NCBI GenBank assembly: GCA_046727955.1
Contig: JBKPDO010000010.1
Coordinates: forward strand, 5,823-69,822
DNA: 64,000 nt
Direction of reading: 5' to 3'
Source of the DNA: a bacterium
GTDB lineage: Bacteria > Actinomycetota > CALGFH01
Part shown: positions 163-49,528 of the stretch, piece after piece
Layout: each line of letters starts with the position of its first letter
Numbering within the stretch: the first letter of the stretch is position 1
The notes under the pieces: model-generated
Told to the model about the DNA's origin: nothing
Databases searched by the model: none
What the model saw: the letters and a program-made list of their open reading frames with translations, nothing else
Made by a program: the position numbers and the translations under genes

Positions 163-1854
163 ATGAGACCAATGGTGGGTCGCAGGCTCCTGGGCATCCC
201 GCCGAGCCAGGGTGGGAGCAGTCCGCTCTACCTCTACATGACGGCCGTCTCGGTAGCGGGCCTCGTCGTTCTCATCTACGCGGTGGTTCGCGCCGTGCCC
301 GCCACCCACCACGCTTCGGCGGCCTTCTGGCTGCTCGCGGTCCTGGTCCTGGTCCTGCAGGCAACGCCGATCTCGGTGGAGCCGTGGGTGGGCGGCGTCG
401 TCAGCACCTCGTTCCCGTTCGCGCTGGCCATGCTGCTCGGCTGGGGCGCGTACCCGGCGACGGTGGTCAACGGGCTGGGCGCCGCGCTCGGCGCCGCCCG
501 GCTGCGCCAGCCGCCGAGGAAGCTCTGGTTCAACGTCGGCCAGCAAGTCCTCATGATCGCCGCGGCCGGCGCCGTCTACGGCCCGCTCGACGCCGGCCGC
601 CCGTTCGATTTCACCAGCTATCAGCTACTGAGCTTTGCCGTGGCCGGGACGGTGGCGGCGGTCGTCAACACCTCGCTGATCCGCATCGGCTTTGCCCTCG
701 ACCGGCAGCGCCCGGTCACGACCACGCCTCGCAGCCGCTTCGACGCCTGGCTGTACCCGGTCGAGCTGAGCATGGGCCTGGTGGTGCTGCTCGTCGCACA
801 GCACGTCCCGTGGCTGCTGGTGGTGCTCGCGCCGGCCTCGATCATCCCCATCTACGTAGCCGCGCGGGCTGCGCTGGAGGCGCACGCGCGGCGTGCCGAC
901 GCGGAGGCGGCGCGTACCGTGGCCGAGGCCGCGCGCAGCGAGGCGGAGGCCGCCAGGGTCGCGGCCGAGCAGGTGGCCAGCGAGCACGCCCGCCTGATCC
1001 ACGCCAGCAACAGGCTGATCCGGCGCCTTGAGGAGGTCGACCGGCACAAGGACGAGATGCTGGCGGCGGTCACCCACGAGCTGCGCACGCCGGCGTCCAG
1101 CATCCTCGGGGTTGTCCGCACCCTGGGCCAGGCAGGCGACCGTCTCAGCCCCGAGCAGCACCAGCAGTTCCTGGGCCTGGTCCTGGAGCAGGCCGAGCAG
1201 CTCGACGAGCTCATCAGCCAGCTCCTGCTCGCCGCCAAGCTGCAGCAGCCCCAGTTCGTCGCCGACCCGACCACACGCGAGCTGGCGGACCTTGCCGAGC
1301 TGGCCCGCCGGGCGGGGCAGCTCGCCACCCTCACCTACCCGGACCGTCCGGTCGAGGTCGACGCCGACGACCAGCTGCCGGTGCAGGTCGATCGCAAGGT
1401 GGTCGCGCAGATCCTCGGCAACCTAGTCGGCAACGCCGCCACGCACACTCCGCCGGGCACGCCGATCGTGCTGGAGGCGGGACGCCGCGGGAGCCTCGCG
1501 GTGGTCGCGGTCGAGGACCGCGGACCGGGCGTGCCACCCCAGGAGCGTACCCGCGTCTTCGAGCGGTTCACGCAGCTCAACGGCACCGAGACGGCTCACA
1601 AGGGCGGCGTCGGGCTGGGTCTGTATATCGCGCGCCAGCTCGCGCGCGCCCAGGGCGGCGAGGTGCTGGCGGTCGACCCGGTCGCCGAGGGCGGCGCCCG
1701 CTTCGAGCTGCGCCTGCCGGTGCTCGAGGCAGGCGCCGCCGACGAGCCGCCGGCCACCAAGCCGGCCACCAAGCCGGCCACCAAGCCGGCCACCAAGCCG
1801 GCCACCAAGCCGGCGACCGCGGCCAAGCCGCCGGCCGACGCCGCCACGCCCTGA
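163..1854 (+). CDS. Sensor histidine kinase: polytopic N-terminal membrane domain, HisKA H-box (VTHELRTPASSILG), HATPase_c (GLGLYIARQLARAQGGEV); C-terminal (PATK)n basic repeat tail. Alternative start at M26 (238).
   Basis: ORF track translation. H-box and G-box motifs are visible. Hydrophobic N-terminal segments. No response regulator adjacent. Confidence 0.8.
   Translation: MRPMVGRRLLGIPPSQGGSSPLYLYMTAVSVAGLVVLIYAVVRAVPATHHASAAFWLLAVLVLVLQATPISVEPWVGGVVSTSFPFALAMLLGWGAYPATVVNGLGAALGAARLRQPPRKLWFNVGQQVLMIAAAGAVYGPLDAGRPFDFTSYQLLSFAVAGTVAAVVNTSLIRIGFALDRQRPVTTTPRSRFDAWLYPVELSMGLVVLLVAQHVPWLLVVLAPASIIPIYVAARAALEAHARRADAEAARTVAEAARSEAEAARVAAEQVASEHARLIHASNRLIRRLEEVDRHKDEMLAAVTHELRTPASSILGVVRTLGQAGDRLSPEQHQQFLGLVLEQAEQLDELISQLLLAAKLQQPQFVADPTTRELADLAELARRAGQLATLTYPDRPVEVDADDQLPVQVDRKVVAQILGNLVGNAATHTPPGTPIVLEAGRRGSLAVVAVEDRGPGVPPQERTRVFERFTQLNGTETAHKGGVGLGLYIARQLARAQGGEVLAVDPVAEGGARFELRLPVLEAGAADEPPATKPATKPATKPATKPATKPATAAKPPADAATP
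1750..1830 (+). repeat. 12-bp tandem repeat (ccggccaccaag) x ~6.5, encoding PATKPATKPATK at the C-terminus of the histidine kinase
   Basis: Direct reading of sequence 1741-1830 and of the ORF translation. Confidence 0.8.
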
Positions 1855-1898
1855 TCAGCTATGCCGCCTGAAGGACCGGGGACTAACGCTCGGCTGTG

Positions 1899-2744
1899 CT
1901 ACTCACCCCCGAGGGTGGAGGGGCCTCGCTCTTGAGTCCCCCGGACCCCCTCGGTGCGGGGAGCCTCGCCGGCGGGGCGCCGGCGTTCTCGCGCCAGCCG
2001 GCGGTGACGCTGGAGGGTGCGCAGGGTGCCGAGGCCGTAGACCACCGACCGGCGGAAGTTCACCGAGCTCGCCTCGGTGAAATAGCGCGTCGGCACGGGG
2101 ATCTCGCCGATGCGGAAGCCGGCCAGCACGACCTGGGAGACCAGCTCCTGGTCGAAGACGAAGTCGTTGGAGTTGGCGTGGTAGTCGATCGCCTCGAGCA
2201 GCTTGCGGGAGTATGCCCGGTAGCCGGAGTGGTACTCGGACAGGTCGAGCCCGAAGGCGCGGTTCTCCAGCACCGTGAGGAAGCGGTTGGCCACGAACTT
2301 CCAGCGCGGCATGCCGCCGGCCAGCGGGTCGCCGAGCAGCCGGCTGCCGAGCATCATGTCCGCCCTGCCCTCGACGATCGGGGCGATCAGGTCGGGGATG
2401 CGGGTGGCGTCGTACTGGTAGTCCGGGTGGAGCATGACCACCACGTCGGCTCCCTCGGCCAGGGCGGTGTCGTAGCAGGTCTTCTGGTTGCCGCCGTAGC
2501 CGAGGTTCTGGCGGTGAACGACCACCTGGAGGTCGAGGAGCTCGGCGACCGCGACGGTGTCGTCCCGCGACAGGTCGTCGACCAGGATCACGTGGTCGAC
2601 CACTTCGGAGGGGATCTCGCGGTAGGTGCGGACCAGCGTGCGCGCCGCGTTGTAGGCGGGCATTACCACGATGACCTTGGGTCGCTGCGATGGTGGCTGC
2701 ATGAATTCGGCCTGTCCTACGGGGCTCGGTCCGGCTGTGGGCAT
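1899..2744 (-). CDS. Family 2 glycosyltransferase, soluble polyprenyl-phosphate sugar synthase-like (DPM1/Ppm1-like catalytic domain, no C-terminal TM)
   Basis: N-terminal VIVVMPAYNAARTL..VILVDDLSRDDT (GT-A fold DxD region). About 280 aa. Confidence 0.75.
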   Translation of the reverse strand: MPTAGPSPVGQAEFMQPPSQRPKVIVVMPAYNAARTLVRTYREIPSEVVDHVILVDDLSRDDTVAVAELLDLQVVVHRQNLGYGGNQKTCYDTALAEGADVVVMLHPDYQYDATRIPDLIAPIVEGRADMMLGSRLLGDPLAGGMPRWKFVANRFLTVLENRAFGLDLSEYHSGYRAYSRKLLEAIDYHANSNDFVFDQELVSQVVLAGFRIGEIPVPTRYFTEASSVNFRRSVVYGLGTLRTLQRHRRLARERRRPAGEAPRTEGVRGTQERGPSTLGGE

Positions 2745-2815
2745 TGCGACGACGAACGCCCCGGATAGTAGTCAATCAAACCCGTACCGGGCGAGATCGG
2801 CTAGTGGCGCAGGCC

Positions 2816-4354
2816 CTAGCCGGGCGCGACGCGCAGGAGGTAGAGGCCCCGTACCGGGTCGACGAGCAGCGGCGCGACCTGGAGGCGGCCGATCCGCTTG
2901 GGAATGGTCGTCGACAGCGGCGCGAAGCGGGGCTCAGAGGGGAACTCGTTCCGGTCGTAGAAGACCGCCACCGTCCCGGAGAGGGCACCGTCCAGCGGCT
3001 GATGGAGCGTGCTCAGGAACAGATCGCGCGCCCGACCGAGCGGGAGCCCCAGCTCCAGCGCTATCCGCGGGCGCTGCATGATGGGGACGGCCACCACTGT
3101 CCCGGGCGCCGCGACGAGCGGTCGGAGCGCGCGGACCGCGATCGCCGTGTCTCGGCTGAGGTCGGCGCCGGGGTCCAGGGTCGAGCGAACCAACTGCTGG
3201 TTGGTCAGCGCCAGCGGCCAGGCGGCGGCGGCGGTGATGCCGCCGGCGAGCAACCCGCCGAGCAGCGCGCCGAGGACCGTGCGCCACCTGCCGCCGCCAA
3301 GAGCGCGCAGCGCGAGCGGCACGGCAGCGGCGGCGAGCCATGCGGCGCCCAGAGCGGCGAGGACCCGCATGCCCGCGTCGGGCGGGTCGTAGTAGCGGAA
3401 GGAGATGTACGTGCCCCGCCAGGCCTCCACGCCGAGAAAAGCGAGCACACCGACGACGACCACGCCCACGCCGGTCAGCCACAGCCAGGCCCGCCGCCTG
3501 ACGAGCCCGACCACGCCGAGCAAGGCCAGGGCGGACAGCAGCGGGGTGGCCCAATAGCGCTGGGCGACCCGGCCCGTCCATTCGAGCGGCGCGACCGCGT
3601 GGCGACCGCTGAGCAGGTCCGTGTAGCGCTCGGGAACCTCGAGCGAGTGCAGCGCGTCGCCGGTGAGCGCCAAGTCGTGGCCCAGCCACAGCAGCGGCGC
3701 GGCCAGGGGCACGAGCAGCAGCAGGGCGCGCCGCTCGCCGCGCCGCCAGGCGACCAGACCGAGCAGGACAGCGGGAGGCAGCAGCAGCAAGCTCTCGGCC
3801 CGGGTGAGGCTGGCCAGCAGCAGCGCGGCCGCGGCCACCCCCCAGCGCCGCTGTGGCCGCGCCAGCGAATCGAGCGCCACTGCCCAGCCCGCCAGCGCCC
3901 AGATCGACGAGTTGCCCCGGCCCACCTGACTGATCAGTGGGGCCGACCCGGCCAGCGCCAGCACGACCGCCACAGCGGCGGGGGGCCCCGCCAAGCGCCC
4001 GGCCGCACGGGCCAAAGCGGTCACAGCCAAGGCGAAGACCGCCACGGTAAGGACGCTGATGGTGCGCCAGTCGTGGGTGAGCGTCCAGGCCAGGCCATCG
4101 ACCAGGGTGAGCAGCGGCTTGGGGGTCGACAGCAGGAACTCCTCCAGGCGCCGGCCATGGATCAGGCGGTCGAAATACAGCGCTGAGGCGTACTCGTCTG
4201 GATCGAGCGTCGGCGGCCCCGGCAGCCGCACCAGCAGCGCGGTCGCCCCCGCGACCGCCGACCACAACGCCAGCCACGGCCAGGACGCCACGCGGGGAGC
4301 CCTGACGGGCGCCGGCGCGTGGACAGGGCCGTCAGCAGTCACCACCGCCACCGG
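2816..4354 (-). CDS. Polytopic GT-C superfamily glycosyltransferase (GT39/GT83-like; PMT/ArnT-type). Start uncertain (ORF runs to 4801).
   Basis: Many TM helices. First-loop DE motif (PPTLDPDEYASALYFDR). GTG start at 4354 is chosen because an AAGGAGG RBS sits about 10 nt upstream. Confidence 0.6.
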   Translation of the reverse strand, partial: PVAVVTADGPVHAPAPVRAPRVASWPWLALWSAVAGATALLVRLPGPPTLDPDEYASALYFDRLIHGRRLEEFLLSTPKPLLTLVDGLAWTLTHDWRTISVLTVAVFALAVTALARAAGRLAGPPAAVAVVLALAGSAPLISQVGRGNSSIWALAGWAVALDSLARPQRRWGVAAAALLLASLTRAESLLLLPPAVLLGLVAWRRGERRALLLLVPLAAPLLWLGHDLALTGDALHSLEVPERYTDLLSGRHAVAPLEWTGRVAQRYWATPLLSALALLGVVGLVRRRAWLWLTGVGVVVVGVLAFLGVEAWRGTYISFRYYDPPDAGMRVLAALGAAWLAAAAVPLALRALGGGRWRTVLGALLGGLLAGGITAAAAWPLALTNQQLVRSTLDPGADLSRDTAIAVRALRPLVAAPGTVVAVPIMQRPRIALELGLPLGRARDLFLSTLHQPLDGALSGTVAVFYDRNEFPSEPRFAPLSTTIPKRIGRLQVAPLLVDPVRGLYLLRVAPG

Positions 4355-4452
4355 GTCCACCACCTCCTTCAGCGCGACTGCATCGTACCGTTGCCGCTCC
4401 GCCAGGATGCGATAGATTGCCGTGGCCGCGCTCCGGCGGCGATGGTGAGGTG

Positions 4453-5250
4453 ATGGTGACCGAATTCGACGCCAAGCAGTATTGGGAGACCCGTCTGGCG
4501 GCCAATCCTGGACTTCGCGGTGTCGGCTTCGTGCGGCTTGGACGCCAATACAACGACTGGCTGTACCGGGTGCGGCGCCAGGTCTTCCCGCGCCGCCTGC
4601 GGGCGCTCGACACCCGCATGGACGGCCTGGACGTGCTCGACATCGGCTCCGGCACAGGGTTCTACCTAGACCGCTGGCGCGAGCTGGGGGTCCGCTCGGT
4701 GGTGGGGACGGATCTCGCCGAAGTCGCCGTCCAGGCGCTGCGCCGCAGCCACCCTGGCACCGAGGTCTATCAGGTCGACATCGGCGGTGATCTCGGGCCA
4801 CTGAGCGGCCGCACGTTCGGCATCGTCTCGGCCTTCGACGTCCTGTTCCACATCGTGGAGGACGATCGCTTCGAGGCAGCGATCAAGCACGTCCGCTCGC
4901 TGCTCGAGCCAGGTGGCCTCTTCGTGTGGTCGGACAACTTCGTTCATCAGCAGACGGTGCGGATCCCCCATCAGTCGAGCCGCTCGCTGGACTTCATCGA
5001 GCGGACGCTCGCCTCGTCAGGGTTCGAGGTGGTCGAGCGACGACCGATGTTCGTGCTGATGAACGGCCCGGCCGACACCCGCAGTCCCCTGCTCAAGGGC
5101 TGGTGGCTGGCACTGCGCGGCGCCGTCTCGCTCGGAGAGCCGGTGGGCTGGACGCTTGGCGCCCTGCTCTATCCGCTCGAGCTGCTGCTCACCCGCCTCC
5201 TGAAGGAGAGCCCAAGCACTGAATTGATGATCTGCCGCGCGGTCGACTGA
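4453..5250 (+). CDS. Class I SAM-dependent methyltransferase
   Basis: Motif I VLDIGSGTGFY. RBS GGTGAGG before ATG at 4453. Divergent from the GT-C gene. Confidence 0.75.
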   Translation: MVTEFDAKQYWETRLAANPGLRGVGFVRLGRQYNDWLYRVRRQVFPRRLRALDTRMDGLDVLDIGSGTGFYLDRWRELGVRSVVGTDLAEVAVQALRRSHPGTEVYQVDIGGDLGPLSGRTFGIVSAFDVLFHIVEDDRFEAAIKHVRSLLEPGGLFVWSDNFVHQQTVRIPHQSSRSLDFIERTLASSGFEVVERRPMFVLMNGPADTRSPLLKGWWLALRGAVSLGEPVGWTLGALLYPLELLLTRLLKESPSTELMICRAVD

Positions 5251-5293
5251 CCCTGTCCGTCTGCCGACAAAGCGTCACGCTGGCATTGGCCAC

Positions 5294-5791
5294 TCAGGGC
5301 ACACCGCGACCGCGGCGGATCGCCTCGGTCCGGGCCAGCCGATGCTCGCGCCGGATCTTCGCCTCGGCCTGGCGGCGGCGCTCCTGCTCGGTCTCGGGCT
5401 GCAGCGGCGCCACCGGCCGCGGCCGTCCACCCTGGTCGAGCGCGACGAACACCAGGTAGGCCGAGGAGGTGTGGGTGCGCTGCCCGGTCACCAGGTCCTC
5501 CGCCTCGACCCTCACCCCGACCTCCATGGAGGTGCGGCCCACGTCGTTCACGCAGGCGTGCACGAACACCACGTTGCCCACGTGGACAGGGTGCAGGAAG
5601 CTCATCTCGTCGAGCGAGACCGTGACCGTTAGCCCGCCGGCGTGGCGGCCGGCGGCGATGCCCGCCGCGCTGTCGATCAGCTTCATGATCTCGCCGCCGT
5701 GGACGTTGCCCGCGAGGTTCGCGTGCACGAGCTCCATGAGCTGCGACAGCGTCACCGCCGACTCCCGCGGCGCCTTGGGCTCGAGGCTCAT
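5294..5791 (-). CDS. Acyl-CoA thioesterase (hotdog fold, YciA-like)
   Basis: About 165 aa with a hotdog-like core. Sits immediately downstream of the acyl-CoA dehydrogenase, with stop/start adjacent. Confidence 0.6.
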   Translation of the reverse strand: MSLEPKAPRESAVTLSQLMELVHANLAGNVHGGEIMKLIDSAAGIAAGRHAGGLTVTVSLDEMSFLHPVHVGNVVFVHACVNDVGRTSMEVGVRVEAEDLVTGQRTHTSSAYLVFVALDQGGRPRPVAPLQPETEQERRRQAEAKIRREHRLARTEAIRRGRGVP

Positions 5792-5792
5792 G

Positions 5793-6959: not shown

Positions 6960-7148
6960 GGTGCCAACCTCCTCGAGCGGCGCCAACCGCGATCGTACAG
7001 GGCTTCCGTACCCTTCCGTAGAATGAAGCGCGTCCGGAACAGCGACAATGGCGAGGCCTTTCGACACCTGCGGACAGCGCCGCTCGGCCAGGGGAACCGG
7101 GCGGCCGGGGCGTTTGGATCGTGACCGACGACCTGGGATCATGCGCCT

Positions 7149-12628: not shown

Positions 12629-12652
12629 GGCAGAGGCCCTGCCGGCCGCTGG

Positions 12653-13901: not shown

Positions 13902-15467
13902 CTATCGCCGTGGCTGTTGGGTCAGGGGCGAGGGCCTGCGCGGGGCGTACTCGAGCCCGAGGAGCGCCAGGTCGTCGGTATAGCGGCCGTCGGAGTGCTC
14001 GTCGACCATCTCGACGAGGCGGTCGAGGACCTCGTCGAGGCCGTCGCCGGCGATCGCCTCGTCGAAGCGGGCGCGGTCGATGAACTGGCCGCTGCGGTTG
14101 CGCGCCTCCACCAGCCCGTCGGTGTAGCAGATCAGTCGCTGCCCGGGACGGAGCAGCCCGAACGCCTCGACCGCCTGCGTGCCCAGACCGAGCGGGGCGG
14201 CCACGCGGGGCAGCAGCGGCCCGGCCACGCCCAGCGGGGGCGGGTGGCCAGCCGTGGCGAGCACCACCCGCCCATTGAGGTAGACGCGGCCGGCGAGAGC
14301 AGTGACGAAATCCTCTTCCTCTCCCTCACGCGCGACCAGCCGGTCGAGCCGCGCGAGAATCGCGGCCGGGCCGATCCCCTCACCGGCGAGGCTGCGGAAG
14401 GCACCCTTGAGCAGCGCCGCCAGCGAACTGGCCTCTAGGCCCTTGCCGCGGGCGTCGGCGATGATGAACCCGAGCCCCTGTGGGCCCGTCTCGACCACGT
14501 CGTAGAAGTCGCCGCCGATCTCCGCGAGGGTGCTGGCCGACTGGTACCGCACCGCCAGCTGGTAGCCGGCCGCCCACTCCGGCGGGGTGGAGAGCAGCAG
14601 GGCCTGGATCTGGTCCAGTACCTCGGCCTGGGCCTGGACGCGCTCAGAGCCGGAGATGGCGCGGGCGCCGAGGCTCGCGAAGCGGGTGGAGGCCTCCAGG
14701 TCGCTGGCGGACAGACGCGGGTCGCGCTGCCGCCAGGCGAGCAGGATGTTGCCAGTCTGGTACCCGGCCGCGTCGACCAGCGGCAGCCAGAGGAGGCTCC
14801 CGAGGCCGCGTGCCTCGAGCATGGGCTTCTCTGGCCCGGACCACAGACGGCCGCCGCACCGCTGTGGGCTGGTGGCGAAGGCGGCCGGGAACGTGGCGCG
14901 GTCCAGCCGGGCCGGCAGCGGTGGGACCAGCTCGTCACGCGCCTGGGCGACCGCGACCATGCGCTCCCCGTTGCGCCGGTACACCGCCACCCCCGCCGCC
15001 TCGTAGAGCTTGCACGCCGAGCGGGCCAGCAGCTCGTAGGCCTGCTCTGTCTCGACGCCGGCGGCCAGCGAGGCGGCGATGGTGATGGTGTCGGCGGCGC
15101 GCCCGAAGGCTGACCGCTCGCGCCGGTAGGCTCCCTGGTTGAGCAGGGCCAGCATGGTGCCGAGGGCGATCAGCAGGAGCTGGGCGCCGAGCTGCTGGTC
15201 CGCGACCTTGTGCAGGTGCAGCCCGGCCGCCAGGCCGACCCCGAGCGCGGTGAGCCCCGAGACGAGCACCTGCTCGCGGCCGGTGGACAGCCACCCGGCC
15301 AGCAGCGGGGCGAGGACCAGGAACGCTCCGGTGTACAGCGCCCTGGAGGTCAGCCAGTCGCCGGCCACGGCGGCGGCGATCAGCAGGTACGGCGCCGCCG
15401 CCCGCCACGACCAGCCGGCGAGCAGCCCGCCCGCGCCGGACTGCTCGTCGGCCGCCTGCTGCACCAC
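13902..15467 (-). CDS. PP2C-family (SpoIIE/RsbU-like) serine phosphatase with N-terminal membrane segments and a central sensor (GAF-like) region
   Basis: GGDFYDVVE..GFIIADARGKG..GHPPPL PPM motifs. Four N-terminal hydrophobic helices. GTG start. Confidence 0.7.
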   Translation of the reverse strand: MVQQAADEQSGAGGLLAGWSWRAAAPYLLIAAAVAGDWLTSRALYTGAFLVLAPLLAGWLSTGREQVLVSGLTALGVGLAAGLHLHKVADQQLGAQLLLIALGTMLALLNQGAYRRERSAFGRAADTITIAASLAAGVETEQAYELLARSACKLYEAAGVAVYRRNGERMVAVAQARDELVPPLPARLDRATFPAAFATSPQRCGGRLWSGPEKPMLEARGLGSLLWLPLVDAAGYQTGNILLAWRQRDPRLSASDLEASTRFASLGARAISGSERVQAQAEVLDQIQALLLSTPPEWAAGYQLAVRYQSASTLAEIGGDFYDVVETGPQGLGFIIADARGKGLEASSLAALLKGAFRSLAGEGIGPAAILARLDRLVAREGEEEDFVTALAGRVYLNGRVVLATAGHPPPLGVAGPLLPRVAAPLGLGTQAVEAFGLLRPGQRLICYTDGLVEARNRSGQFIDRARFDEAIAGDGLDEVLDRLVEMVDEHSDGRYTDDLALLGLEYAPRRPSPLTQQPRR

Positions 15468-22235: not shown

Positions 22236-22916
22236 TCAGAGGCGGTCCAGGAGGTCGCGCTTCTTGCGCTGGAACTCCTCTTCGGTGATGGCGCCGCGGT
22301 CGCGCAGGCTGGCCAGCCGCTCCAGGTCGTCCAGGGTGCTCGGCGGACGGCCCCCACCGCTCATGCGCTGCCCGTTCGCCTCCATCTGGCGGTAGATCTC
22401 GACCTGGACCGCCTCTGGGTGCGGCACGTTCTCGAAAACTGACTGGCCACGCTCGCCCGCGGACTCGATCAGCAGGTCGCCGGCGCCGATCATCCGCTCC
22501 CACAGGGACTGTGTGAAGGTGACGTCGTTCAGGCGCTCGAGCGGGATCTCGCGAGAGAGCTTGGACAGCACGCCCGCGCGGAAAATCAGCCGGTCGGTGG
22601 TCAGCACGAAATGGGTCGTCACCCAGCGCAGGTAGCGGGGCAGCACGAACACCAGCAGGAGCAGCACGGCCACACCGGTCACCGCCAGCCGGACCGGCCA
22701 CAGCAGGCTGCCGCCTGGCAGCAGCGTCCAGCCCAGAGAGCCGGCGACCACCACCGCGAACCCCAGCAGGATGGGCCCCACCAACGCCCACCAGTGGGGG
22801 CGGAGGTCATAGACGACCTCTTCGTGCTCCCCCAGGAGCCGTTCCGGGAACGGCACGCGAATGACCTCCTCCGTCGCGCCGGGACGCCGGCTCCGGCCGC
22901 CGCGCGAGGGTAGCAA
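22236..22916 (-). CDS. Membrane protein with a bacterial PH domain (bPH_2/DUF304, YdbS-like) and a C-terminal SHOCT domain. Start uncertain.
   Basis: YDLRPHWWAL plus two TM helices, and C-terminal LASLRDRGAITEEEFQRKKRDLL. Confidence 0.6.
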   Translation of the reverse strand: MLPSRGGRSRRPGATEEVIRVPFPERLLGEHEEVVYDLRPHWWALVGPILLGFAVVVAGSLGWTLLPGGSLLWPVRLAVTGVAVLLLLVFVLPRYLRWVTTHFVLTTDRLIFRAGVLSKLSREIPLERLNDVTFTQSLWERMIGAGDLLIESAGERGQSVFENVPHPEAVQVEIYRQMEANGQRMSGGGRPPSTLDDLERLASLRDRGAITEEEFQRKKRDLLDRL

Positions 22917-23042
22917 CCACCGCGGCCCCGCTCAAGAGCCCACAGCCCCGCTCAAGAGCCGGGCCCGGGTCCTTGGGTCCGGACTGGGGCCGGACCGTTG
23001 CACGATCGCAACCTCCGCGGCCGATCTTGACGGATGTAGCGG

Positions 23043-24020
23043 GTGCCGTGGCCCGCGGAACACTCCCGAGGACCCTTGACACGACAACGCCTGATCCCGA
23101 GCCTGGCCGGAGCGGCTGCGCTCGCCGCCGCCCTGAGCCTGCTCGCGGGCCCCAGCCCCGGTCATCGCGGTCCCTCCACAGCCAGAGGCCAGCTCGGCGC
23201 CATGACGGCGCTGCCCAGGCTCGCCGAGCAGCGCGCTGACGAGACTCCGGGCAGGCGCCTGGCGTCAGCCCGCTGGCGTCTCGACGTCACCGTCTACTAC
23301 CTGCGCAAGGTCGGCACCGCCCGCTACCTGGTCCCTGAGGAGCACGCGGTGCCCTTCGCGACCTCCGGCGACAAGGTGGTGGCAGCCGCCGTGACCGAGC
23401 TGCTCAACGGCAGGCCGCGCTACTTCGGCGCCGAGCGGCCCTTCCCCGGTGGGACTCGCCTGCTCGACCTGCGGCTGGCTGCCGGCACCGCCACCGTGAA
23501 CCTGTCCCGCCAGGCGCTCCGGGCAGCCAGCCCCGACGGCTACCCACTGCAGACGCTGGTGTGGACGGTCACCCAGTTCCCTCCGGTCAAGCGGGTGGTC
23601 GTGCGGGTCGAGGGGCGGTCAGGCGGCTTGCTCGACGGGCGGGAGGTGTCGGACCTTCTCGGCGCCGGCGATGGTGGCGGACAGCTCGTCCGCGACCAGT
23701 CGCTGCGCGTGGCTCCCATCCTGCTCGACGAGCCGGGCGCGGAGGCGACGGTCAGCGGGGTCCGGCTTGTGGCCAGGGGCGAGGCCCGCGTCGCGAGTGG
23801 TACGGTCGGCCTGCGCCTGCGGGACAGCACCGGGAGGGTCGTCTCCCAGGGTTTCGCCACGCTGGCGGTCAGCCCACCCGCGTGGGGCAGGTTCTCTGGC
23901 GCGCTGGTGTTCGCGCCGCCGCCCCAGCGGCAGCTCTGGCGGATGGAGGCGTTCGAGGCCAGCCCGGTCGACGCCTCGGTGACCTACTCCGTGACCGTCC
24001 CGGTCTGGGTGGGCGGCTGA
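23043..24020 (+). CDS. Secreted GerMN-domain protein with C-terminal Gmad2 (Ig-like) domain. Probable TTG/alternative start near 23076.
   Basis: Signal-like LIPSLAGAAALAAALSLLAG. GerMN-type VTVYYLR..VPEEHAVP segment. C-terminal beta-rich domain. Confidence 0.6.
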   Translation: MPWPAEHSRGPLTRQRLIPSLAGAAALAAALSLLAGPSPGHRGPSTARGQLGAMTALPRLAEQRADETPGRRLASARWRLDVTVYYLRKVGTARYLVPEEHAVPFATSGDKVVAAAVTELLNGRPRYFGAERPFPGGTRLLDLRLAAGTATVNLSRQALRAASPDGYPLQTLVWTVTQFPPVKRVVVRVEGRSGGLLDGREVSDLLGAGDGGGQLVRDQSLRVAPILLDEPGAEATVSGVRLVARGEARVASGTVGLRLRDSTGRVVSQGFATLAVSPPAWGRFSGALVFAPPPQRQLWRMEAFEASPVDASVTYSVTVPVWVGG

Positions 24021-42424: not shown

Positions 42425-42471
42425 CGTCCAGCCTCCTGTCGCAGGAGGCCAGGGTAAGGCACTACCTCGCT

Positions 42472-43317
42472 TCAGGCTGGGAGCGCGCGGGAGCCCGCGG
42501 CGACGCGGCGCAGCGCGTACCAGACGTCCGCCGCCTCGGGGCGCTCGGCCGGCTCCTTGGCCAGCAACCGCTCGATCACCGGGGCGAGCGGGCCGAGGTG
42601 GTCCGCCGGTCGCGGTGGGTCGTTGACGATGGCGTTCACCACGTCCAGGTGCACCTTGGCCGACTTGAACGGCGGCTCGCCCTCGACCGCGAAGTACAGC
42701 GTCGCCCCGAGCGCCCACAGGTCCGTGGGCGGCCCGACCTGGAGCCCCTTGATCTGCTCGGGCGCCATGAACGCCGGCGAGCCGACCACCACCCCGGTCG
42801 CGGTCAGCTCGGGGTCGCCGGTGAGGGACGCGGTGCCGAAGTCGGTGAGCTTGGTGGTGCCGTCCTCGCGCACTAGCACGTTGCTGGGCTTGACGTCCCG
42901 GTGAACGATGCCGGCCCGGTGCGCCGCCTCCAGGGTCGCCAGCAGCCGCAGGCCGATCGCCGCGGCCCGGCGCGGGTCGAGCGGGCCGCGCTCGCCGACG
43001 AGCTGGTCGAGGTTGGGCGCCTCCACCAGCTCCATGACGATGTAGTCCTGGCCCGAGTCCTGGACCACGTCGAAGAGGATGACGGCGCCCGGATGGCTCA
43101 GGCGCGCGGCGGCGCGCGCCTCGCGGATCACCCGCGCCCGCAGCGCGGTCCGCTGCTCCTTCCGGACCGCCGGGGGCAGCTCGACCTCTTTGATTGCGAC
43201 CGGACGGCCCAGCAGGGTGTCCTCGGCCCGCCATACCACGCCCACGCCGCCCTCACCGAGCTGCGGCCCGAGCTCGTAACGGCCGGCGATCGTGCGTCCA
43301 GCGACATCCTGTGCCAT
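42472..43317 (-). CDS. Ser/Thr protein kinase, catalytic domain only (281 aa, no TM)
   Basis: [31 protein letters not shown] all present. Internal ATG by frame arithmetic. Confidence 0.75.
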
Positions 43318-43415
43318 GCCGCCGCACCTTATCAGCCGAGCGCGGTGAAGGCGCGCTCGAACTGTGCAGCGATGCCCCTCCGGCAGGCACGGGAGCCCTC
43401 CGCCGTCCCGGCTCG

Positions 43416-45005
43416 CTATCCCGGCGGCGCGAAGGAGCCGAGGGCTGTCTGCAGGATGGCCTGGGCGACGCCCCAGTCGGTCTCGTGCGAGAACACGCTG
43501 ATGGCCAGCCAGCGGCCGGGGCCGCTCTGGCCCGGCGGGGTGTTGGCGCCGAGCTCGATCGCGTGGAAGGGCTGCTGGTCGTCGCCGAGGTAGGTGAACT
43601 CCAGCACGGCGCCGGGACGGCCCTGGAGGACCGTCGGCTCGACCCGGACCTGCTGGTAGCTGCCCTCGTGGAGGCCCGCGTGCAGCTGCGAGGACTGCTG
43701 CTCGGCGGCGACCGGGTCGCCGGCGGGCCCGTCCTGCCACTGGACCCGCAGGAAGGTCGGCAGGGAGCGGTCGTGGAACTCGGTGGTATGGTCGTCCTGC
43801 TGCACGACCTCCCAGCTCGCCGGGTAGGCGATGCGGTAGCCGACGCGCTGGTCGGTGAATACGGTCCACCCGGCCGGCAGCGCCGCGGCCGTCGGCGGCG
43901 GCGTGGTGGTGGACGTGCTGGTCGAGGTCGAGGTCGAGGTGCTCGGAGTAGTCGCGACGGCGCGGTCACGCGCCCGCTGCTCCGCGACGGAGCCGGCCGG
44001 GTTGCCGATCACCGCCACGATCACCACGAACGACAGCAGCGCGAGCAGCACCGAGACGCCGGCGACCAGCACCCCCCGCCGCCGCGGGTCCAGCAGCCAG
44101 TCGACCGCCTCGCCCCGTGCCGGCAGCCAGGCCGGCAGCCAGGCCGGACGGCCCCGAGCGCGGGCGGCCTGGCCGGCGGCGCCCGCCGCCGGGACGGGCG
44201 TCAGCAGGGCGGTGCCCTCGTCGAGGTCCTCGAGCTGCCTCCGGACGCTGGCGGCCGAGGGGCGCATAGCGGGCGTCCGTGTGAGCAGCGCCGCGAGCAC
44301 CGGGCCCAGCGGGCCGGCATGCTCGCAGGGCCGCGGCTCCTGGTACAGCACCGCATCGGCGGGCACTGTCCGCGCCTGCTCACCGAAGGGGGGCTGGCCC
44401 TCCACGGCGGTGTACATGGTGGCGCCGAGCGCCCACAGGTCCGCCGCCGCTCCGGCAGGCTCCCCACGAGCCTGCTCGGGCGCTGGAACGGCGATCGGCC
44501 GCGCGGGTGGCACCACCGCCGCCAGCCCGAGGCCTGCCAGGCGGGCAGCGCCGTCCGGGGTCACCAGCACGCTCGCCGGCTGCAGGTCCAGGTGGGCAAA
44601 GCCGGCGCGATGGACCGCCTCCAGCACCCCGAGCACGTCGAGGCCGATACGCGCCACCCGGCGCGGCGGCAGGTGGTCGTGGCGCTCGAGGAGCTCGTCC
44701 AGGGGAAGCGCCTGGACCAGCTCGGTGACCACGTAGAGGCGGTCCCCGTCGAGCAGGACGTCGTGCAGCGTGAGCGCGCCCGGGTGGTCGATGCCGGCCG
44801 CCACGCGGGCACCATGGACGATCCGGGACCAGCGCGCGGCGCGCTCGGCCTCGGACTCGGCTGGCGACTCGATCTCCTCGACCGCGACGACGCCGCCGGT
44901 GACCAGGTCGGTGGCGCGCCAGACGGTACCGGCGCGGCCCCGGCGCAGGGTCGCCTGCAGGACGTAGCGGTTGGCGACGAGCCGTTCGGGGGAAGCCTGC
45001 TCCAT
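43416..45005 (-). CDS. Membrane-anchored pseudokinase: degenerate kinase-like domain, one TM helix, Ser/Thr/Pro linker with (ST)n, and an extracytoplasmic C-terminal domain
   Basis: VAVEEI replaces VAIK (no catalytic Lys). HLDLQPASV replaces HRDLKPxN. No DFG (LAGLG). TM VLLALLSFVVIVAVI. Confidence 0.65.
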   Translation of the reverse strand: MEQASPERLVANRYVLQATLRRGRAGTVWRATDLVTGGVVAVEEIESPAESEAERAARWSRIVHGARVAAGIDHPGALTLHDVLLDGDRLYVVTELVQALPLDELLERHDHLPPRRVARIGLDVLGVLEAVHRAGFAHLDLQPASVLVTPDGAARLAGLGLAAVVPPARPIAVPAPEQARGEPAGAAADLWALGATMYTAVEGQPPFGEQARTVPADAVLYQEPRPCEHAGPLGPVLAALLTRTPAMRPSAASVRRQLEDLDEGTALLTPVPAAGAAGQAARARGRPAWLPAWLPARGEAVDWLLDPRRRGVLVAGVSVLLALLSFVVIVAVIGNPAGSVAEQRARDRAVATTPSTSTSTSTSTSTTTPPPTAAALPAGWTVFTDQRVGYRIAYPASWEVVQQDDHTTEFHDRSLPTFLRVQWQDGPAGDPVAAEQQSSQLHAGLHEGSYQQVRVEPTVLQGRPGAVLEFTYLGDDQQPFHAIELGANTPPGQSGPGRWLAISVFSHETDWGVAQAILQTALGSFAPPG

Positions 45006-45096
45006 GGTCGCGGCAGTACTCTACGACAGTCAGGTCCGCAGCGGTCGAGATCCACCCGCTCCGCTGAGGGCTGCGGAGGGGGTGGCGAGGGGATCG

Positions 45097-45342
45097 CTAC
45101 TCGTCCGGGCGGGCGCGGCGGCGGCGGGTTGGGGGTGGCTCGCCGACCGCGCGCTGCCACAGGATGGCGACCAGCTTGCGAGCGAGCATCACGGCGAGCG
45201 CCGATGCCACGGCGAACGCGACCTGCTTGGCGATCCTGCGAGCCTCGTCCGGGGCCCGCTCGGAGAGCTTGGCCACCTTCTCCTCCATGCGTCTGCGGGT
45301 CAGCTCGATCTCTCGGGCGGTCGCCGCCGCGGTCTCACCCAC
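45097..45342 (-). CDS. DUF3618 domain protein. Start uncertain (GTG at 45342 overlaps the holin gene; alternative ATG at 45285).
   Basis: TAREIELTRRRMEEKVAKLSE motif plus one C-terminal TM. Conserved pairing with holin-X in Actinobacteria. Confidence 0.4.
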   Translation of the reverse strand: MGETAAATAREIELTRRRMEEKVAKLSERAPDEARRIAKQVAFAVASALAVMLARKLVAILWQRAVGEPPPTRRRRARPDE

Positions 45343-45776
45343 CTGATCTCCTCTCTGAGCTCGGTCGCGGTCTCTCTCAGCTCGGCCCTGGCCTGCGCGG
45401 GCGTCACCCTCGACCTGGCCAGGCGTCGGGCTCCCAGAAACCCGAGGAGGCCGGCCAGCAGCACCACCGCGCCGCCGACGATCAGTGGACCGAGCCATGC
45501 CGGCCCGTAGATCGCCCGTGCCGCCGAGGCGAGCAGGAACCCGATCCCGTAGAGCACCAGGACCCCCGCCACCGCCAGCAGGCTGGCTGCTCTGGCGCCG
45601 GACACCAGCCCCTCGGTCATCTCCTGCCTGGCCAGCAGGACCTCTTGGCGCACCAGTGTGGTGGCGTCGTCGGCGAGGCCCCTGAGCAGCTCGCCGGTGG
45701 ACGGCTCGCCCGCCACCGCTGGTCCCTGGGGCGAAACGACCCCGTCGCCCCCAGGGGACACTTGCTCGCTTGTCAC
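45300..45776 (-). CDS. Phage-holin-family protein (putative actinobacterial holin-X, holin superfamily III)
   Basis: LVRQEVLLARQEMTEGL followed by two TM helices. GTG start at 45776 with a GGGGGAG RBS. Confidence 0.55.
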   Translation of the reverse strand: MTSEQVSPGGDGVVSPQGPAVAGEPSTGELLRGLADDATTLVRQEVLLARQEMTEGLVSGARAASLLAVAGVLVLYGIGFLLASAARAIYGPAWLGPLIVGGAVVLLAGLLGFLGARRLARSRVTPAQARAELRETATELREEIRWVRPRRRPPERSS

Positions 45777-45844
45777 AATGCTCCCCCTGCTCCGCTGATC
45801 GTCTCGTGATCCTGCCTGATCAGGTTCCCCTCGACAACAGTCTT

Positions 45845-46795
45845 TTACCGCGCGGGCGACCAGGCGGGTCCGAGCACCTCCAGCAGCCGTGTCAGCGCGC
45901 GCCGAGTGGTCGGCGACAGCGGCAGCCCCGCCAGCTCCCACAGCGGGACCCATTCCAGCTGGGAATGCTCGCCTGGGTCGCGGTTGCTCGTCTGCCCCCG
46001 CCAGGCCGTCGCCAGGTAGAACGCATCGGCCCGCTCACCATCGTGGAAGCAGCCCAGCGGCGCGGCAGCGAGCGGCTCCACGTCCGCCTCCTCGCGCGCC
46101 TCGCGGACCAGCGCCTCCAGCAGCGACTCCCCCGGCTCCCGCTTGCCGCCAGGCGCGTCCCATACCCCTGGGTAGCGGCGCTCCGGCCGCCGCGTGCGCC
46201 GGCCGAGCAGGACCCGCGAGCCGTCGAAGAGGAACACGGCCGCGCTCACCGCCTCGGCCAGCGGCACCTCGCGGACCACCCCGACCCCGCCGACCGCCGC
46301 CTGGTGCAGCACCTGCCACTCGCCGCGCTCGTCCTCCTCGGTGAGCGTGACCTCTGGCAGCGGGAACACGGCATGGAAGCCCGCCAGCTCCCGCGCGGCC
46401 GCCTCCAGCTCGGCGGGCGGCCTGTCCTGCGTCACGGTCACGTGTGGATAGAACGGGAAGGCGCGCTGGTCCAGCGGCGGCGCCCGCAGCGCCGCCTCGA
46501 GCGCACGCAACGTCGGCTCGCCCTCCGTCACCACCAGGAAGACCACCGCGCTCTGCGGCAGGAACGTCGCCGCGCCGCGCAGCTCGATCACGCCGGGAAG
46601 CACCCTGGCCGCCGCGCGGTCGACCAGGGCGATCGCCGCGTCCCGGGCAGCGGCCGCCACCGTCTGCGGCGGCACCAGCGTCAGGTGAGGCGGGATCAGG
46701 TCCCTGGCCGGGTCGCGCAGCGCCCGCCGCCAGGCCTGCACGTGCGCGGCCAGCGGCTCAGGCAGCAGCACGATCACCCCGAGAGCGCCGGTCAT
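45845..46795 (-). CDS. Fusion protein: N-terminal 2H phosphoesterase (LigT/2',5'-RNA ligase-like, two H-x-T/S-x motifs HLTL, HVTV) plus C-terminal NUDIX hydrolase
   Basis: Nudix box GKREPGESLLEALVREAREEADVE. 2H motifs about 80 aa apart. ATG by frame arithmetic. Confidence 0.65.
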   Translation of the reverse strand: MTGALGVIVLLPEPLAAHVQAWRRALRDPARDLIPPHLTLVPPQTVAAAARDAAIALVDRAAARVLPGVIELRGAATFLPQSAVVFLVVTEGEPTLRALEAALRAPPLDQRAFPFYPHVTVTQDRPPAELEAAARELAGFHAVFPLPEVTLTEEDERGEWQVLHQAAVGGVGVVREVPLAEAVSAAVFLFDGSRVLLGRRTRRPERRYPGVWDAPGGKREPGESLLEALVREAREEADVEPLAAAPLGCFHDGERADAFYLATAWRGQTSNRDPGEHSQLEWVPLWELAGLPLSPTTRRALTRLLEVLGPAWSPAR

Positions 46796-46938
46796 GTACC
46801 CGGCGCGGCATGCAGCGCCAGACCTTCGTGCGACGCTGGACCTTGCGCGCCGTCCCCGTTGACCACTCACTCACCTCACGAAGGGATACTTGACCGGTGC
46901 TCTTCAGGACGGCGGTGGCCGGCGGGGCCACGCCTCGC

Positions 46939-47937
46939 CTAGCCCGCGCCGCGGGGAAGCAGCCCCATGCGGTCCTTGGCCAGCGCCAGGTTCACGCGCG
47001 CCACCGCCTGCGCCTTGGCCGCGCCCGCCTCCAGGACCTCGGCCAGCCGCTCTCCGTCCGCGCGAAGCTCCAGGTAGTGCTCGCGCACCGGGCTGATGAA
47101 GGCGATCAGCGCCTCGGCCAGGTCCGACTTCAGCTCGCCGTAGCCACGACCGGCGTACGCCACCTCGAGCTCGCCGACGGCCTTGCCCGTGACCACCGAG
47201 TACAGCTCGAGCAGGTTGGTGATCGCCGGCTTGTCGGGCCGGGCGACGACCTCGCGGCCGGAGTCCGTGACCGCGGCGCGGACCTTCCTCCGGACCACCT
47301 CCGGCGGGTCCAGCAGGTCGATCCGCCCGGCAGGGGACTCGCTCGACTTCGACATCTTCTGGTCCGGGTGCTGCAGGTCCATCACCCTGCCGCCGACCTT
47401 GGGGATGTACGGCTCGGGCACCACGAAGGTCCGCCCGAAGCGGGCGTTGAAGCGCTCGGCCACGTCCCGCGTCAGCTCCAGGTGCTGGCGCTGGTCTTCC
47501 CCCACCGGCACCCGCTCCGCCTGGTAGATCAGGATGTCCGCGGCCTGCAGCACCGGGTAGTTGAAGTAGCCGGCGGGGAGCGCGCCCGCGCCGCCCTGCG
47601 CCGCCTTCGCCTTGAACTGCGTCATCCGGCGCAGCTCGCCCACGGTGGCGATGTGGTTCAGCAGCCAGGCCAGCTCGGTGTGCTCCGGCACGTGCGACTG
47701 CACGAACAGCGTGCACACCTCCGGGTCGAGCCCGCAGGCAAGCAGCATCGCCGCCGTCTCCAGCGTGTGCGAGCGCAGCTCCGTCGGGTCGTAGGGCAGG
47801 GTGATCGCGTGCAGGTCGACCACGCAGTAGTAGGCGTCGAACTCGTACTGCTGCTCGACCCACTGCCGGAACGCCCCAATGTAGTTGCCGACATGGGTGT
47901 TGCCGGTGGGCTGGACGCCAGAGAGGATACGAGCCAC
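46939..47937 (-). CDS. trpS: Tryptophan--tRNA ligase
   Basis: KMSKS motif; class I TrpRS/TyrRS family; 332 aa. Confidence 0.9.
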   Translation of the reverse strand: MARILSGVQPTGNTHVGNYIGAFRQWVEQQYEFDAYYCVVDLHAITLPYDPTELRSHTLETAAMLLACGLDPEVCTLFVQSHVPEHTELAWLLNHIATVGELRRMTQFKAKAAQGGAGALPAGYFNYPVLQAADILIYQAERVPVGEDQRQHLELTRDVAERFNARFGRTFVVPEPYIPKVGGRVMDLQHPDQKMSKSSESPAGRIDLLDPPEVVRRKVRAAVTDSGREVVARPDKPAITNLLELYSVVTGKAVGELEVAYAGRGYGELKSDLAEALIAFISPVREHYLELRADGERLAEVLEAGAAKAQAVARVNLALAKDRMGLLPRGAG

Positions 47938-48004
47938 GGTCAGTCCTTGCGCGTCGGGTCGCCGATCACGAACCTGGTCATCCTACCTGTCAGCCAGCGC
48001 CTGC

Positions 48005-49528
48005 TCACACCGCCTCGGCGGTGCGGCGGAGGGGGACAGCCACGGGCAGGTAGGCGAGGGGCAGGCGCAGCTCGAAGCGGGCGCGCCCGCCCGCCTCGCT
48101 GGGGTCCACAGCGCGCAGCTCGCCGCCGTTGGCGTGGGCGAGCTGCCGGGCCATGGCGAGACCGTGGCCAAGCCTGCTCTCGGGAGCGTAGTCACCGTCC
48201 AGATCGGACTGCTCGAAGATGCGCTCGCGCTGCTCGGGGGGGACGTCGACGCCCTCGTCCTCGACCGAGAGGACCACGCGGTCACCGTGTCGGCTCGCGC
48301 CGAGCTGGATGGGGGTCTCCGGAGGCGCATACCGGTGCGCGTTGACGATGAGGTTGCCGAGGAGGTCGAGGATCTCGTCCTGGTTGACGCAGACCGGGAG
48401 ACTGTCGTTCGGTGCCTCCGCGACCACGGGGCGGCCCGCGCAGATGGTCTTGGCAAGCTGCTCGGCGACGTTGACCAGCTCGGCGGCGTCCACGCGCCGG
48501 CGCTCGGGCTCTGCGCTGTGGGCGGCGGTGATCTGCAGCTGGTCGAGCTTGCCGGCGAGCTGCTCGGTCTGCTCGACGCCGTTGCTCGCCAGGCCGTCGA
48601 GCCAGCCGAGGTCGCGCCGCTCGGCCTCTCGGGAGATGGTGCCGAGCAGCCCCTTGAGCATTGCGGTGGAGGCTCGCAGATCGAGCGCCATAGCCGAGAG
48701 CTGCAGGCTGTTTACGCCGCTGCCGGCCTCGGCCTGGCGCCTGAAGCGGTCGGCGACCACGAACAGGTGCCGGTAGTGGAGCAGCTCCTTGGCGTACTCG
48801 CGGCTGAGCGCCTCGGCGCGGTTGGCCGCGCGTCCCGCCACGTACATGGGCAGCGCCGGCACGGCCAGCACCACGGGCAGGACCAGACGGTGCTCGGCCA
48901 CCAGCAGCGCGACCAGCACCATGCTGAACTGGACCGCGCCCTCCAGCAGCTCGACCTGGGTGCCCGCGAACAGCGAGGAGGGGGTCAGCGGACGCCGCTC
49001 CGCCAGCGCGATGGCCACCCGCACCATCAGCCGGTTGACCAGCACGAGCACGATCGTGGCGGCCACGAAGGCGGGCACCTGCTCGAGCCCCAGCGATGGC
49101 CGCCCCCCGAGATGCTGGTAGACCCAGCCGGCGGCCGCGATCGACAGGGCGTACTGGCCGGCGTTGAAGGACACACGCAGGGCCGGCTTGCGGTGCAGGA
49201 GGTCGCTTACGACGCTGGCGACCATGAAGACCACGACCGTCAGCGGGATACCCCAGCCGGTCAGCAGCGCCAGGGCGAAGGGGCGCGACATGGTGATCTG
49301 ATAGACGGCGTTGCGGCGCCACACCGGAATGCGGATCAGCTCGGCGGGGAGCACGCACGCGGCCAGGACCCAGAAGGAGAGGTCAGCCTGCCTCGCCGCG
49401 GCGACGACGTCAGGGAGCAACCAGACAAGGAACCCGATGCCCACCAGGCCAACCAGGACCAGATAGACCTCCACGCCGGTCGGTTGGCGTCTGGCGCTCG
49501 GGAGGGCCAGACGGAATTGGCTCGCCAT
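48005..49528 (-). CDS. Histidine-kinase-like protein paralogous to 163-1854 (same polytopic N-terminal domain, HATPase_c present) but lacking the phospho-acceptor His in the H-box
   Basis: FWVLAACVL../LSFNAGQYAL.. collinear with FWLLAVLVL../LWFNVGQQVL.. of the first kinase. The H-box region reads SLQLSAMALDLRASTAML with no His. Confidence 0.7.
   Translation of the reverse strand: MASQFRLALPSARRQPTGVEVYLVLVGLVGIGFLVWLLPDVVAAARQADLSFWVLAACVLPAELIRIPVWRRNAVYQITMSRPFALALLTGWGIPLTVVVFMVASVVSDLLHRKPALRVSFNAGQYALSIAAAGWVYQHLGGRPSLGLEQVPAFVAATIVLVLVNRLMVRVAIALAERRPLTPSSLFAGTQVELLEGAVQFSMVLVALLVAEHRLVLPVVLAVPALPMYVAGRAANRAEALSREYAKELLHYRHLFVVADRFRRQAEAGSGVNSLQLSAMALDLRASTAMLKGLLGTISREAERRDLGWLDGLASNGVEQTEQLAGKLDQLQITAAHSAEPERRRVDAAELVNVAEQLAKTICAGRPVVAEAPNDSLPVCVNQDEILDLLGNLIVNAHRYAPPETPIQLGASRHGDRVVLSVEDEGVDVPPEQRERIFEQSDLDGDYAPESRLGHGLAMARQLAHANGGELRAVDPSEAGGRARFELRLPLAYLPVAVPLRRTAEAV

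Follow-up and report, generated by a model that had tools for sequence, protein, structure and literature searches.

The 64,000-nt stretch analyzed here (referred to as the window; contig JBKPDO010000010.1 of assembly GCA_046727955.1, positions 5,823 to 69,822) comes from an uncultured soil actinomycete, has a G+C content of 72%, and contains two genes of the histidine kinase type about 46 kb apart, referred to as A and B respectively. An earlier note on this DNA had described the two as paralogous orphan histidine kinases, B lacking the phospho-acceptor His. Both open reading frames (ORFs) are present, B lying on the minus strand, and both show strong coding frames, with a G+C content at third codon positions of 0.93 in A and 0.92 in B. 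Our analysis indicates that B is a conserved pseudo-histidine kinase belonging to a narrow family in which the acceptor His has been fixed as Leu. The features of the two genes, including the dimerization and histidine phosphotransfer (DHp) and the catalytic and ATP-binding (CA) domains, are as follows (AF2, AlphaFold2 model):

163-1854, plus strand: gene A, 563 aa, with a MASE9-like polytopic N-terminus followed by HisKA and HATPase_c
1075-1077, plus strand: CAC codon of the phospho-acceptor His305 of A, in VTHELRTP
48005-49528, minus strand: gene B, 507 aa, with MASE9 followed by a His-less DHp and a degenerate HATPase_c
48863-49528, minus strand: polytopic MASE9 membrane domain of B, aa 1-222 (PF20972 in orthologues, AF2 helices)
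48728-48856, minus strand: long helix of B preceding the DHp, aa 225-267, with the invariant block Y-R-H254-L-F-V..R-R-Q
48530-48709, minus strand: DHp-like helical hairpin of B, aa 274-333 (AF2 helices and a profile alignment with the DHp of HK853)
48683-48685, minus strand: CTC codon of Leu282 of B, at the position of the phospho-acceptor His (family alignment and HK853)
48056-48499, minus strand: CA (HATPase_c) domain of B, aa 344-491 (Pfam and alignments)

In Pfam searches, B matched HATPase_c (E = 1.3e-15) and had no HisKA match. Against PF20972 (MASE9) it scored 16.2 bits, below the gathering cutoff of 24.3; among 49 orthologues of B, 34 matched this family at E ≤ 0.01 (best 7.7e-7) and none matched HisKA, and P0066 carries a precomputed PF20972 match. 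A word-indexed search with B returned about 84 proteins at 62-100% identity, every one of them with HATPase_c and without HisKA. We aligned 71 matches with B itself (72 sequences, 62-100% identity), and compared a profile of the 49 orthologues with solved kinases. His305 of A (VTHELRTP) aligns with Leu282 of B (AMALDLRAS), and this column is Leu in all 72 sequences, within the motif A-L-(D/E)-L-R-x-S-T-x-M-L. The profile aligns with solved kinases over both the DHp and the CA domain, and places the H-box His of HK853 ('ISHELRTP') opposite the Leu of the B family ('VALDLRAS'). The claimed absence of the H-box His from B is therefore confirmed by the family alignment, the HK853 alignment and the HisKA model alike, and no His is found at the equivalent DHp position when B is aligned by profile.

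The AF2 model of B (pLDDT 71) begins with a polytopic bundle at residues 18-222 and a long helix at 225-267; after a break (268-273) it continues with a DHp-like hairpin, whose helices span 274-304 and 308-333, and ends in an alpha/beta CA domain (344-491). The helices of the membrane part span residues 18-46, 50-64, 81-92, 94-111, 116-139, 148-177, 190-210, and 217-222, with a short beta-hairpin at 66-79, and a crude hydropathy scan is broadly concordant with them. The best Foldseek matches of the model were ZraS, CpxA, WalK, and HK853.

Ratios of nonsynonymous to synonymous substitution (dN/dS, Nei-Gojobori) were 0.24-0.44 for B overall and 0.38-0.47 for A, which served as a control. Every domain of B is under purifying selection (MASE9, pre-DHp helix, DHp hairpin, and CA core), the pre-DHp helix being the most constrained part (0.08-0.39). 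Because the Leu is fixed throughout the family and the gene is under purifying selection, B is best regarded as a conserved pseudo-histidine kinase and not as a dying gene; dN/dS and conservation rule out a decaying pseudogene. This agrees with the suggestion of the earlier note, since the kinase fold has been kept while the His-to-Leu change became fixed. Acceptor loss has also occurred independently elsewhere: two further MASE9 kinases (P0257 and P0276) carry Leu in place of the His, and a subgroup related to A (P0151-P0158, P0163, and P0164) carries Arg (VSRELRTP), while its sister subgroup keeps VTHELRTP.

The proteins returned by the word-indexed search come exclusively from soil metagenomes or from metagenome-assembled genomes (MAGs) labelled 'Actinomycetes bacterium'. 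A scan of GTDB genomes found three loci only, all in Actinomycetes/Actinomycetota MAGs and none in a cultured relative. When 1.84 billion representatives were searched exhaustively by profile, the B family formed one 50% identity cluster scoring 939 bits, and the full-length matches that followed scored at most 277 bits and retained the His in nearly all cases.

The state of the CA domain bears on whether B might still be an enzyme, one that binds ATP and phosphorylates the His of a partner in trans, or its own Ser287/Thr288 or His254, or that alternatively works as an ATPase switch. N392, N396, and R399 of the N-box and D424 and G426 of G1 are invariant or nearly so in the family, and S287, T288, and H254 are invariant. 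However, G1 (D-E-G-V-D) has lost its second glycine, G2 (L-G-H-G-L, and x-L-A-H-G-V in most orthologues, with the consensus x-L-(A/G)-H-G-(V/L)) keeps one glycine of three, and the ATP-lid segment (436-453) is unconserved and modelled with pLDDT below 50. His254 is also an unlikely alternative acceptor, since it lies 28 residues upstream of the His site and beyond the helix break of the AF2 model. B has a weak match to HATPase_c_2 (anti-sigma Ser-kinase type, E = 6e-4), but A yields a similar match, so this is not specific to B. Given these losses, we consider an enzymatic B quite unlikely.

Upstream of B, on the same strand, lies a small ORF (sORF) together with several non-coding elements:

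49743-49838, minus strand: sORF of 31 codons, MTRLKGRMARIAAALAGLAALAFSASAMYKY, encoding a predicted single-pass membrane peptide
49656-49742, minus strand: two GC-rich hairpins immediately after the sORF stop codon, the second followed by the T-rich TTACTTTTGG
49596-49617, minus strand: conserved non-coding box GGTGGTTTGACAGGGAAGTTAC, between the hairpins and B (13 loci)
49938-49990, minus strand: palindromes CCGAAACGTTTG and CGAAACGAGCGTTTCA, then TAGAAT, upstream of the sORF (12-locus alignment)

Gene calls in related contigs place a 31-aa ORF about 150-210 bp upstream of B, and an sORF of identical length precedes every B orthologue that has upstream DNA in the data. Copies were sought by a DNA-pattern scan of the metagenome collection, in which 21 of 22 matches were true sORFs. 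The sORF loci include L005 7750-7845, L007 9738-9833, L008 7705-7800, L009 3348-3443, L010 5727-5822, and L012-L033. Sixteen loci extend 500 bp or more beyond the sORF, and in each of them the next ORF has a B-type MAS/MAR N-terminus; A-x-A-L-(D/E)-L-R, with Leu at the His site, could be read in the 10 B genes that reach it, the remaining ones being shorter, except that L033 turns into a C-type sequence (see below). The peptide follows the consensus MTRLK..R.A.ALA.LA.LA....A..K[WFY], with 16 invariant residues, a basic N-terminus, an aromatic last residue (W/F/Y), and a predicted transmembrane segment at residues 7-29 that forms a single hydrophobic helix. Its variable sites are distributed 12/11/25 over the three codon positions, TGA, TAG, and TAA all occur at one shared stop position, and the ribosome-binding site GGAGGGGG, 7 nt upstream of the sORF in the window, is conserved. 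This codon-position bias, the varied stop codons, and the conserved ribosome-binding site argue that the sORF is protein-coding. The sORF-B pair stays together in unrelated flanks outside the acn-trpS context (L007 and L038), and no second copy was found before A-type or C-type genes (the latter described below) in the loci inspected. Identity with the small morphogenic membrane protein MmpA (NCBIfam NF046122) was considered and rejected, as one orthologue reached 17.7 bits (E = 0.003) against a cutoff of 32 and the sORF of the window gave no match.

The hairpin after the sORF stop codon is present in 13 aligned loci with differing sequence, and could act as a terminator or attenuator between the sORF and B. 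An alternative reading of the sORF follows from this: it may be a regulatory leader that mediates translation-coupled attenuation of B and trpS, B then acting alone. The position of the terminator-like hairpins immediately after the sORF stop in all loci would fit such a leader, as would the last sORF codon, which is always aromatic, with trpS lying downstream. On the other hand, Trp itself is not conserved at the C-terminus, the sORF is retained with B where trpS is absent (L007 and L038), and the peptide keeps a fixed length, 16 invariant residues, and a transmembrane-like pattern, with variation mostly at third codon positions. We regard attenuation by a leader sORF as very unlikely.

The box before B (GGTTTGACAGGGAAG) contains a near-invariant GG(T/A)TTGACA in 13 loci, with an extended form GG(T/A)TTGACA(G/C)GGAAG, and may be B's own promoter or operator. 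The region at 49938-49990 is probably a promoter with an operator, and both elements look like regulated promoters in their sequence. Between acn and B, a consensus promoter scan detected no complete sigma-70 site and a terminator scan gave no match, the hairpin loops exceeding the length allowed by the scanner. RNAalifold applied to the sORF leader of 10 loci gave weak CCCC/GGGG pairing near the ribosome-binding site and no covariation, and we do not claim a structured leader RNA. A scan of the entire window against Rfam found no family reaching its gathering score.

The closest sensor relatives of B are MASE9-HisKA_3-HATPase kinases (hits P0085-P0093), which we refer to as C-type. Their MASE9 domains are 59-69% identical to that of B, compared with 34-37% for A, and tracts of 90-95% nucleotide identity are shared by B and C-type genes within one genome. 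A C-type gene adjoins the sORF-B pair, usually divergently, in at least seven loci (L007, L021/L034, L036, L038, L027, L029, and L030).

Two side observations concern these C-type genes. The ORF at L033 583-1986 (minus strand) is an exact chimera, B(1-157)::C(125-465), whose halves are identical to the B orthologue of L021 (9579-11039, minus strand) and to its C-type neighbour P0087 (L021 12549-13943, plus strand), and whose junction lies inside a tract of 90-93% identity that includes 47 identical nt in a row. The chimera arose either in assembly or by a real inversion between the divergently oriented paralogues. Further, in three unrelated contexts the C-type gene is followed by a gene for an unannotated protein of about 190-200 aa and then one for a DUF6545 protein (L007 14691-16312, L036 10135-11717, and L038 13983-15571), and these two may belong to a C-type module.

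The paralogy of A and B and the collinearity of their N-terminal membrane domains, both claimed from the sequence before, were borne out by pairwise BLASTP, over the full length as well as region by region. The two proteins align end to end with 37% identity over 529 columns (E = 2e-66); their N-terminal membrane domains are 37.5% identical over 240 aa (E = 2e-24), their DHp regions 25% identical (E = 0.01), and their CA domains 49% identical (E = 6e-39). A has no direct PF20972 match but aligns with the MASE9 domain of B at the E value just given. Relatives of A at about 41% identity carry PF20972, many as precomputed matches, and thousands of relatives have the architecture of A, many of them with a Pfam MASE9 match. 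These comparisons indicate that the domain common to both N-termini is probably MASE9 and that A and B are old paralogues within a family of MASE9-HisKA-HATPase_c sensor kinases.

A itself is catalytically orthodox by sequence: it matches HisKA (E = 1.3e-12) and HATPase_c (E = 6.4e-21), and its catalytic motifs are all canonical (His305, the N box, G1 as DRGPG, and G2 as GGVGLGL). Its upstream flank lies outside the window and was inferred from orthologous loci, an exact look-up of A in public assemblies having returned no record. In these (66-76% identity), A belongs to a cluster that begins with genes for an LCP protein, an AMP-binding fragment, a family 2 glycosyltransferase (GT2), A, and a convergent GT2, and continues with two large membrane proteins, an acyl-CoA dehydrogenase, a GFO/MocA oxidoreductase, a DegT aminotransferase, and another GT2. 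Of this cluster, the window contains the part downstream of A. Within 8 kb of the A orthologues no receiver domain was found, a GT2 glycosyltransferase being the gene upstream of A in those loci. With no receiver within this distance and a conserved cluster around it, A is a true orphan kinase that lies among genes for cell-envelope glycans.

Near its C-terminus A carries one further feature:

1749-1818, plus strand: 12-bp tandem repeat GCCGGCCACCAA encoding (PATK)5-PAT (Tandem Repeats Finder: 5.8 copies, score 133)

The tail had been described as a perfect (PATK)6 array. The 12-bp tandem repeat is real (period 12, 98% matches), but its copy number and perfection are not, as there are five perfect GCCGGCCACCAA units and one variant unit. 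In orthologues the array is much shorter: the tail of a 94% identical orthologue ends EPPATKPATAANPPADAATP and that of a 90% identical one ends EPPATKPATDSAAAAKPP..., each with about two units (P0121 and P0122), orthologues at 68-76% identity have a single ATKP, and more distant relatives have an unrelated GGGRGRVAGG tail. The A-like sister group P0140-P0164 has another conserved C-terminal motif, (P)SxGGGRGRV(A/I)G(G/S)R, instead of the ATKP tail. With 6 K/R against 4 D/E in 43 residues, the tail of A has a net charge of +2. As the repeat number collapses in orthologues and the tail is so weakly basic, the proposed likeness to HupB or histone H1 DNA-binding tails, which are strongly basic Lys-rich repeats (PAKK/AKKA-type) shared by orthologues, finds no support, and the survey of relatives points instead to the strain-specific slippage product that the earlier note had named as its refutation. 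The array is best read as a recent, strain-specific expansion by replication slippage in a poorly conserved, disordered C-terminal tail, that is, an ordinary length polymorphism of the microsatellite type for which a special explanation is unnecessary.

These data bear directly on the proposal that B heterodimerizes with A and modulates it, the PATK tail serving as a HupB/H1-like DNA-binding appendage. The two are full-length collinear paralogues in one genome, both orphans, and their CA domains are nearly half identical. However, the DHp regions, which would form the dimer interface, are the least similar part of the pair, their MASE9 domains share 37% identity, and the MASE9 of B is far closer to that of another kinase class. 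A lies in a glycan cluster and B between acn and trpS, the two were never adjacent in the loci inspected, and the tail expansion is missing from 90-94% identical orthologues. The MASE9 of B is nearer to the C-type, and several genomes have C-type genes physically linked to B. A is thus a poor choice of partner, and the A-B heterodimer is the least supported of the alternatives and in our view highly improbable. Co-occurrence of A and B under the shared accession WNGB01 was also considered and is uninformative, because WNGB01 is a whole-metagenome assembly.

The earlier note had stated that neither gene has an adjacent response regulator, and this holds: the neighbours of B are acn, the sORF, and trpS, and the loci of A orthologues are without receivers. 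Pfam scans of 20 window proteins found no receiver domain, nor did a crude hidden Markov model run against the entire window translated in six frames (best E = 0.09), and none was seen within 8-10 kb of the inspected A, B, or C-type orthologues; a distant orphan regulator could still be encoded elsewhere in the genome. This is relevant to a possible reversed signalling of the DivL kind, in which the DHp-CA module of B would be a receptor for a phosphorylated orphan response regulator, and binding would be transmitted to the MASE9 domain and the sORF peptide, or to a partner kinase. As in DivL (PMC4211667), the DHp helices of B are conserved yet His-less; DivL (4q20) is among the sequence-detectable solved relatives of B, and the residue that follows the His site is conserved as an acidic one (D/E283). 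However, no receiver domain is present in the window or in the related loci listed, and the +4 position of the phosphatase/response-regulator contact motif E/DxxT/N varies (A/T/N/G/S). We therefore consider reversed signalling unlikely.

In most related loci, as in the window (46939-56992), B lies within a conserved tricarboxylic acid (TCA) cycle neighbourhood. The gene order in the window is citrate synthase (55865-56992), isocitrate dehydrogenase (54606-55694), malate dehydrogenase (53671-54603), and aconitase (50073-52922), followed by the sORF, B, trpS (46939-47937), and a LigT/NUDIX fusion (45845-46870); the first three were named by synteny and by length match with L005/L008. Beyond these genes, relatives carry the sdh operon and a Ser/Thr kinase gene. 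Other signalling or development-type genes of the window lie at 13902-15467 (minus strand), 43416-45005 (minus strand), and 22236-24020; the types are a SpoIIE-family PP2C phosphatase whose N-terminal region is long, a Ser/Thr protein kinase, a bPH_2/SHOCT protein, and a Germane/Gmad2 protein.

The explanation that we find best overall, and probable on balance, is that B is a signalling pseudokinase that receives the peptide on its MASE9 domain and modulates a live MASE9 kinase. With Leu in place of the acceptor, B would be unable to autophosphorylate at the canonical site and may instead work via protein-protein contacts. MgrB and SafA are single-transmembrane peptides of less than 70 aa that act on the membrane or periplasmic part of PhoQ, and by analogy the small peptide may bind the MASE9 bundle within the membrane. 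The dead DHp-CA module might then pass this state on, either by hetero-oligomerizing with a genuine kinase or by titrating the partner of that kinase. The RetS-GacS pair offers a precedent in that a sensor-kinase-like protein controls another by direct heteromeric contact and not by phosphotransfer to a regulator. The likeliest partner of B would be its MASE9-HisKA_3 paralogue and not A. Both analogies have limits: MgrB and SafA act on active kinases and are not encoded beside them, whereas the sORF is strictly linked to a pseudokinase and its interaction is predicted; and RetS keeps its His, unlike B, for which a heteromer is a proposal.

Several observations weigh against this explanation. 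No C-type kinase is present within the window, and most loci consist of acn, sORF, B, and trpS without an adjacent C-type gene; B therefore need not depend on a C-type kinase, and any link between the two would have to work at a distance or be dispensable. The terminator-like hairpins after the sORF mean that it may serve as a regulatory leader and not encode a functional peptide. The AF2 model of B is of moderate confidence only. Finally, the invariance of the N-box Asn residues and the G1 Asp hints that nucleotide binding may still matter and that B is perhaps not fully 'dead'.

The same components could also be combined into a three-part membrane signalling device consisting of the 31-residue peptide, the MASE9 pseudokinase, and the MASE9-HisKA_3 kinase, in which the peptide would be the ligand or regulator of a dead 'decoy' sensor that gates the live kinase through MASE9-MASE9 contacts. 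In this complete form we regard the proposal as doubtful. If true, the repeated His losses in the family (His to Leu three times and His to Arg once) would reflect a general strategy of dedicated pseudokinase subunits, and recombination between paired paralogues, through exchange of their sensor and output halves, may contribute another level.

B fits the established kind of pseudo-histidine kinase, as judged from its alignments and its model: the fold is kept, the H-box His is replaced, and the protein is conserved under selection. Like B, DivL of Caulobacter crescentus has a conserved HisKA-type DHp-CA fold without the acceptor His, and it signals by protein-protein contacts (PMC4211667), which we propose for B by analogy. 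At the His site DivL carries Tyr where B carries Leu, and DivL has PAS domains as its sensor and one membrane anchor, whereas B has a polytopic MASE9 domain. B further differs in its degenerate G2, in its linked micro-peptide gene, and in that no response regulator is known as its partner. PsmA of Streptomyces venezuelae, proposed to be a scaffold or partner, is likewise an actinomycete kinase-like protein that lacks the H-box His and is conserved in its lineage, but it is a soluble, PAS-containing hybrid with a receiver, and its His position varies between species (PMC12963549), whereas B is embedded in the membrane and lacks a receiver, and its Leu does not vary. An evolved ChrS variant is reported as a further pseudo-histidine kinase (PMC9491836).

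In the available passages of the preprint by Galperin and Chou (10.1101/2021.11.05.467447), MASE9 is given eight predicted transmembrane segments, among them a short pair that is re-entrant, a role in sensing ligands inside the membrane is proposed for it, and it is described in fusion with HD-GYP and GGDEF-EAL outputs; no MASE9 kinase or pseudokinase appears in those passages. Here, unlike in the proteins of that preprint, the fusion partners of MASE9 are kinase modules of the HisKA, HisKA_3, and His-less types. The combination of a polytopic MASE9, an invariant Leu, no receiver, and a linked micro-peptide was not found described in the searchable literature.

Only a handful of bacterial pseudo-histidine kinases have been studied, among them DivL, PsmA, and the evolved ChrS variant. 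B would add a naturally fixed pseudo-histidine kinase with a polytopic membrane domain that is experimentally approachable, via a strictly linked micro-peptide gene encoding a candidate intramembrane regulator and a live paralogue with a near-identical sensor domain. The uncharacterized MASE9 domain would thereby gain its first kinase and pseudokinase contexts, with recurrent loss of the acceptor within one sensor family.

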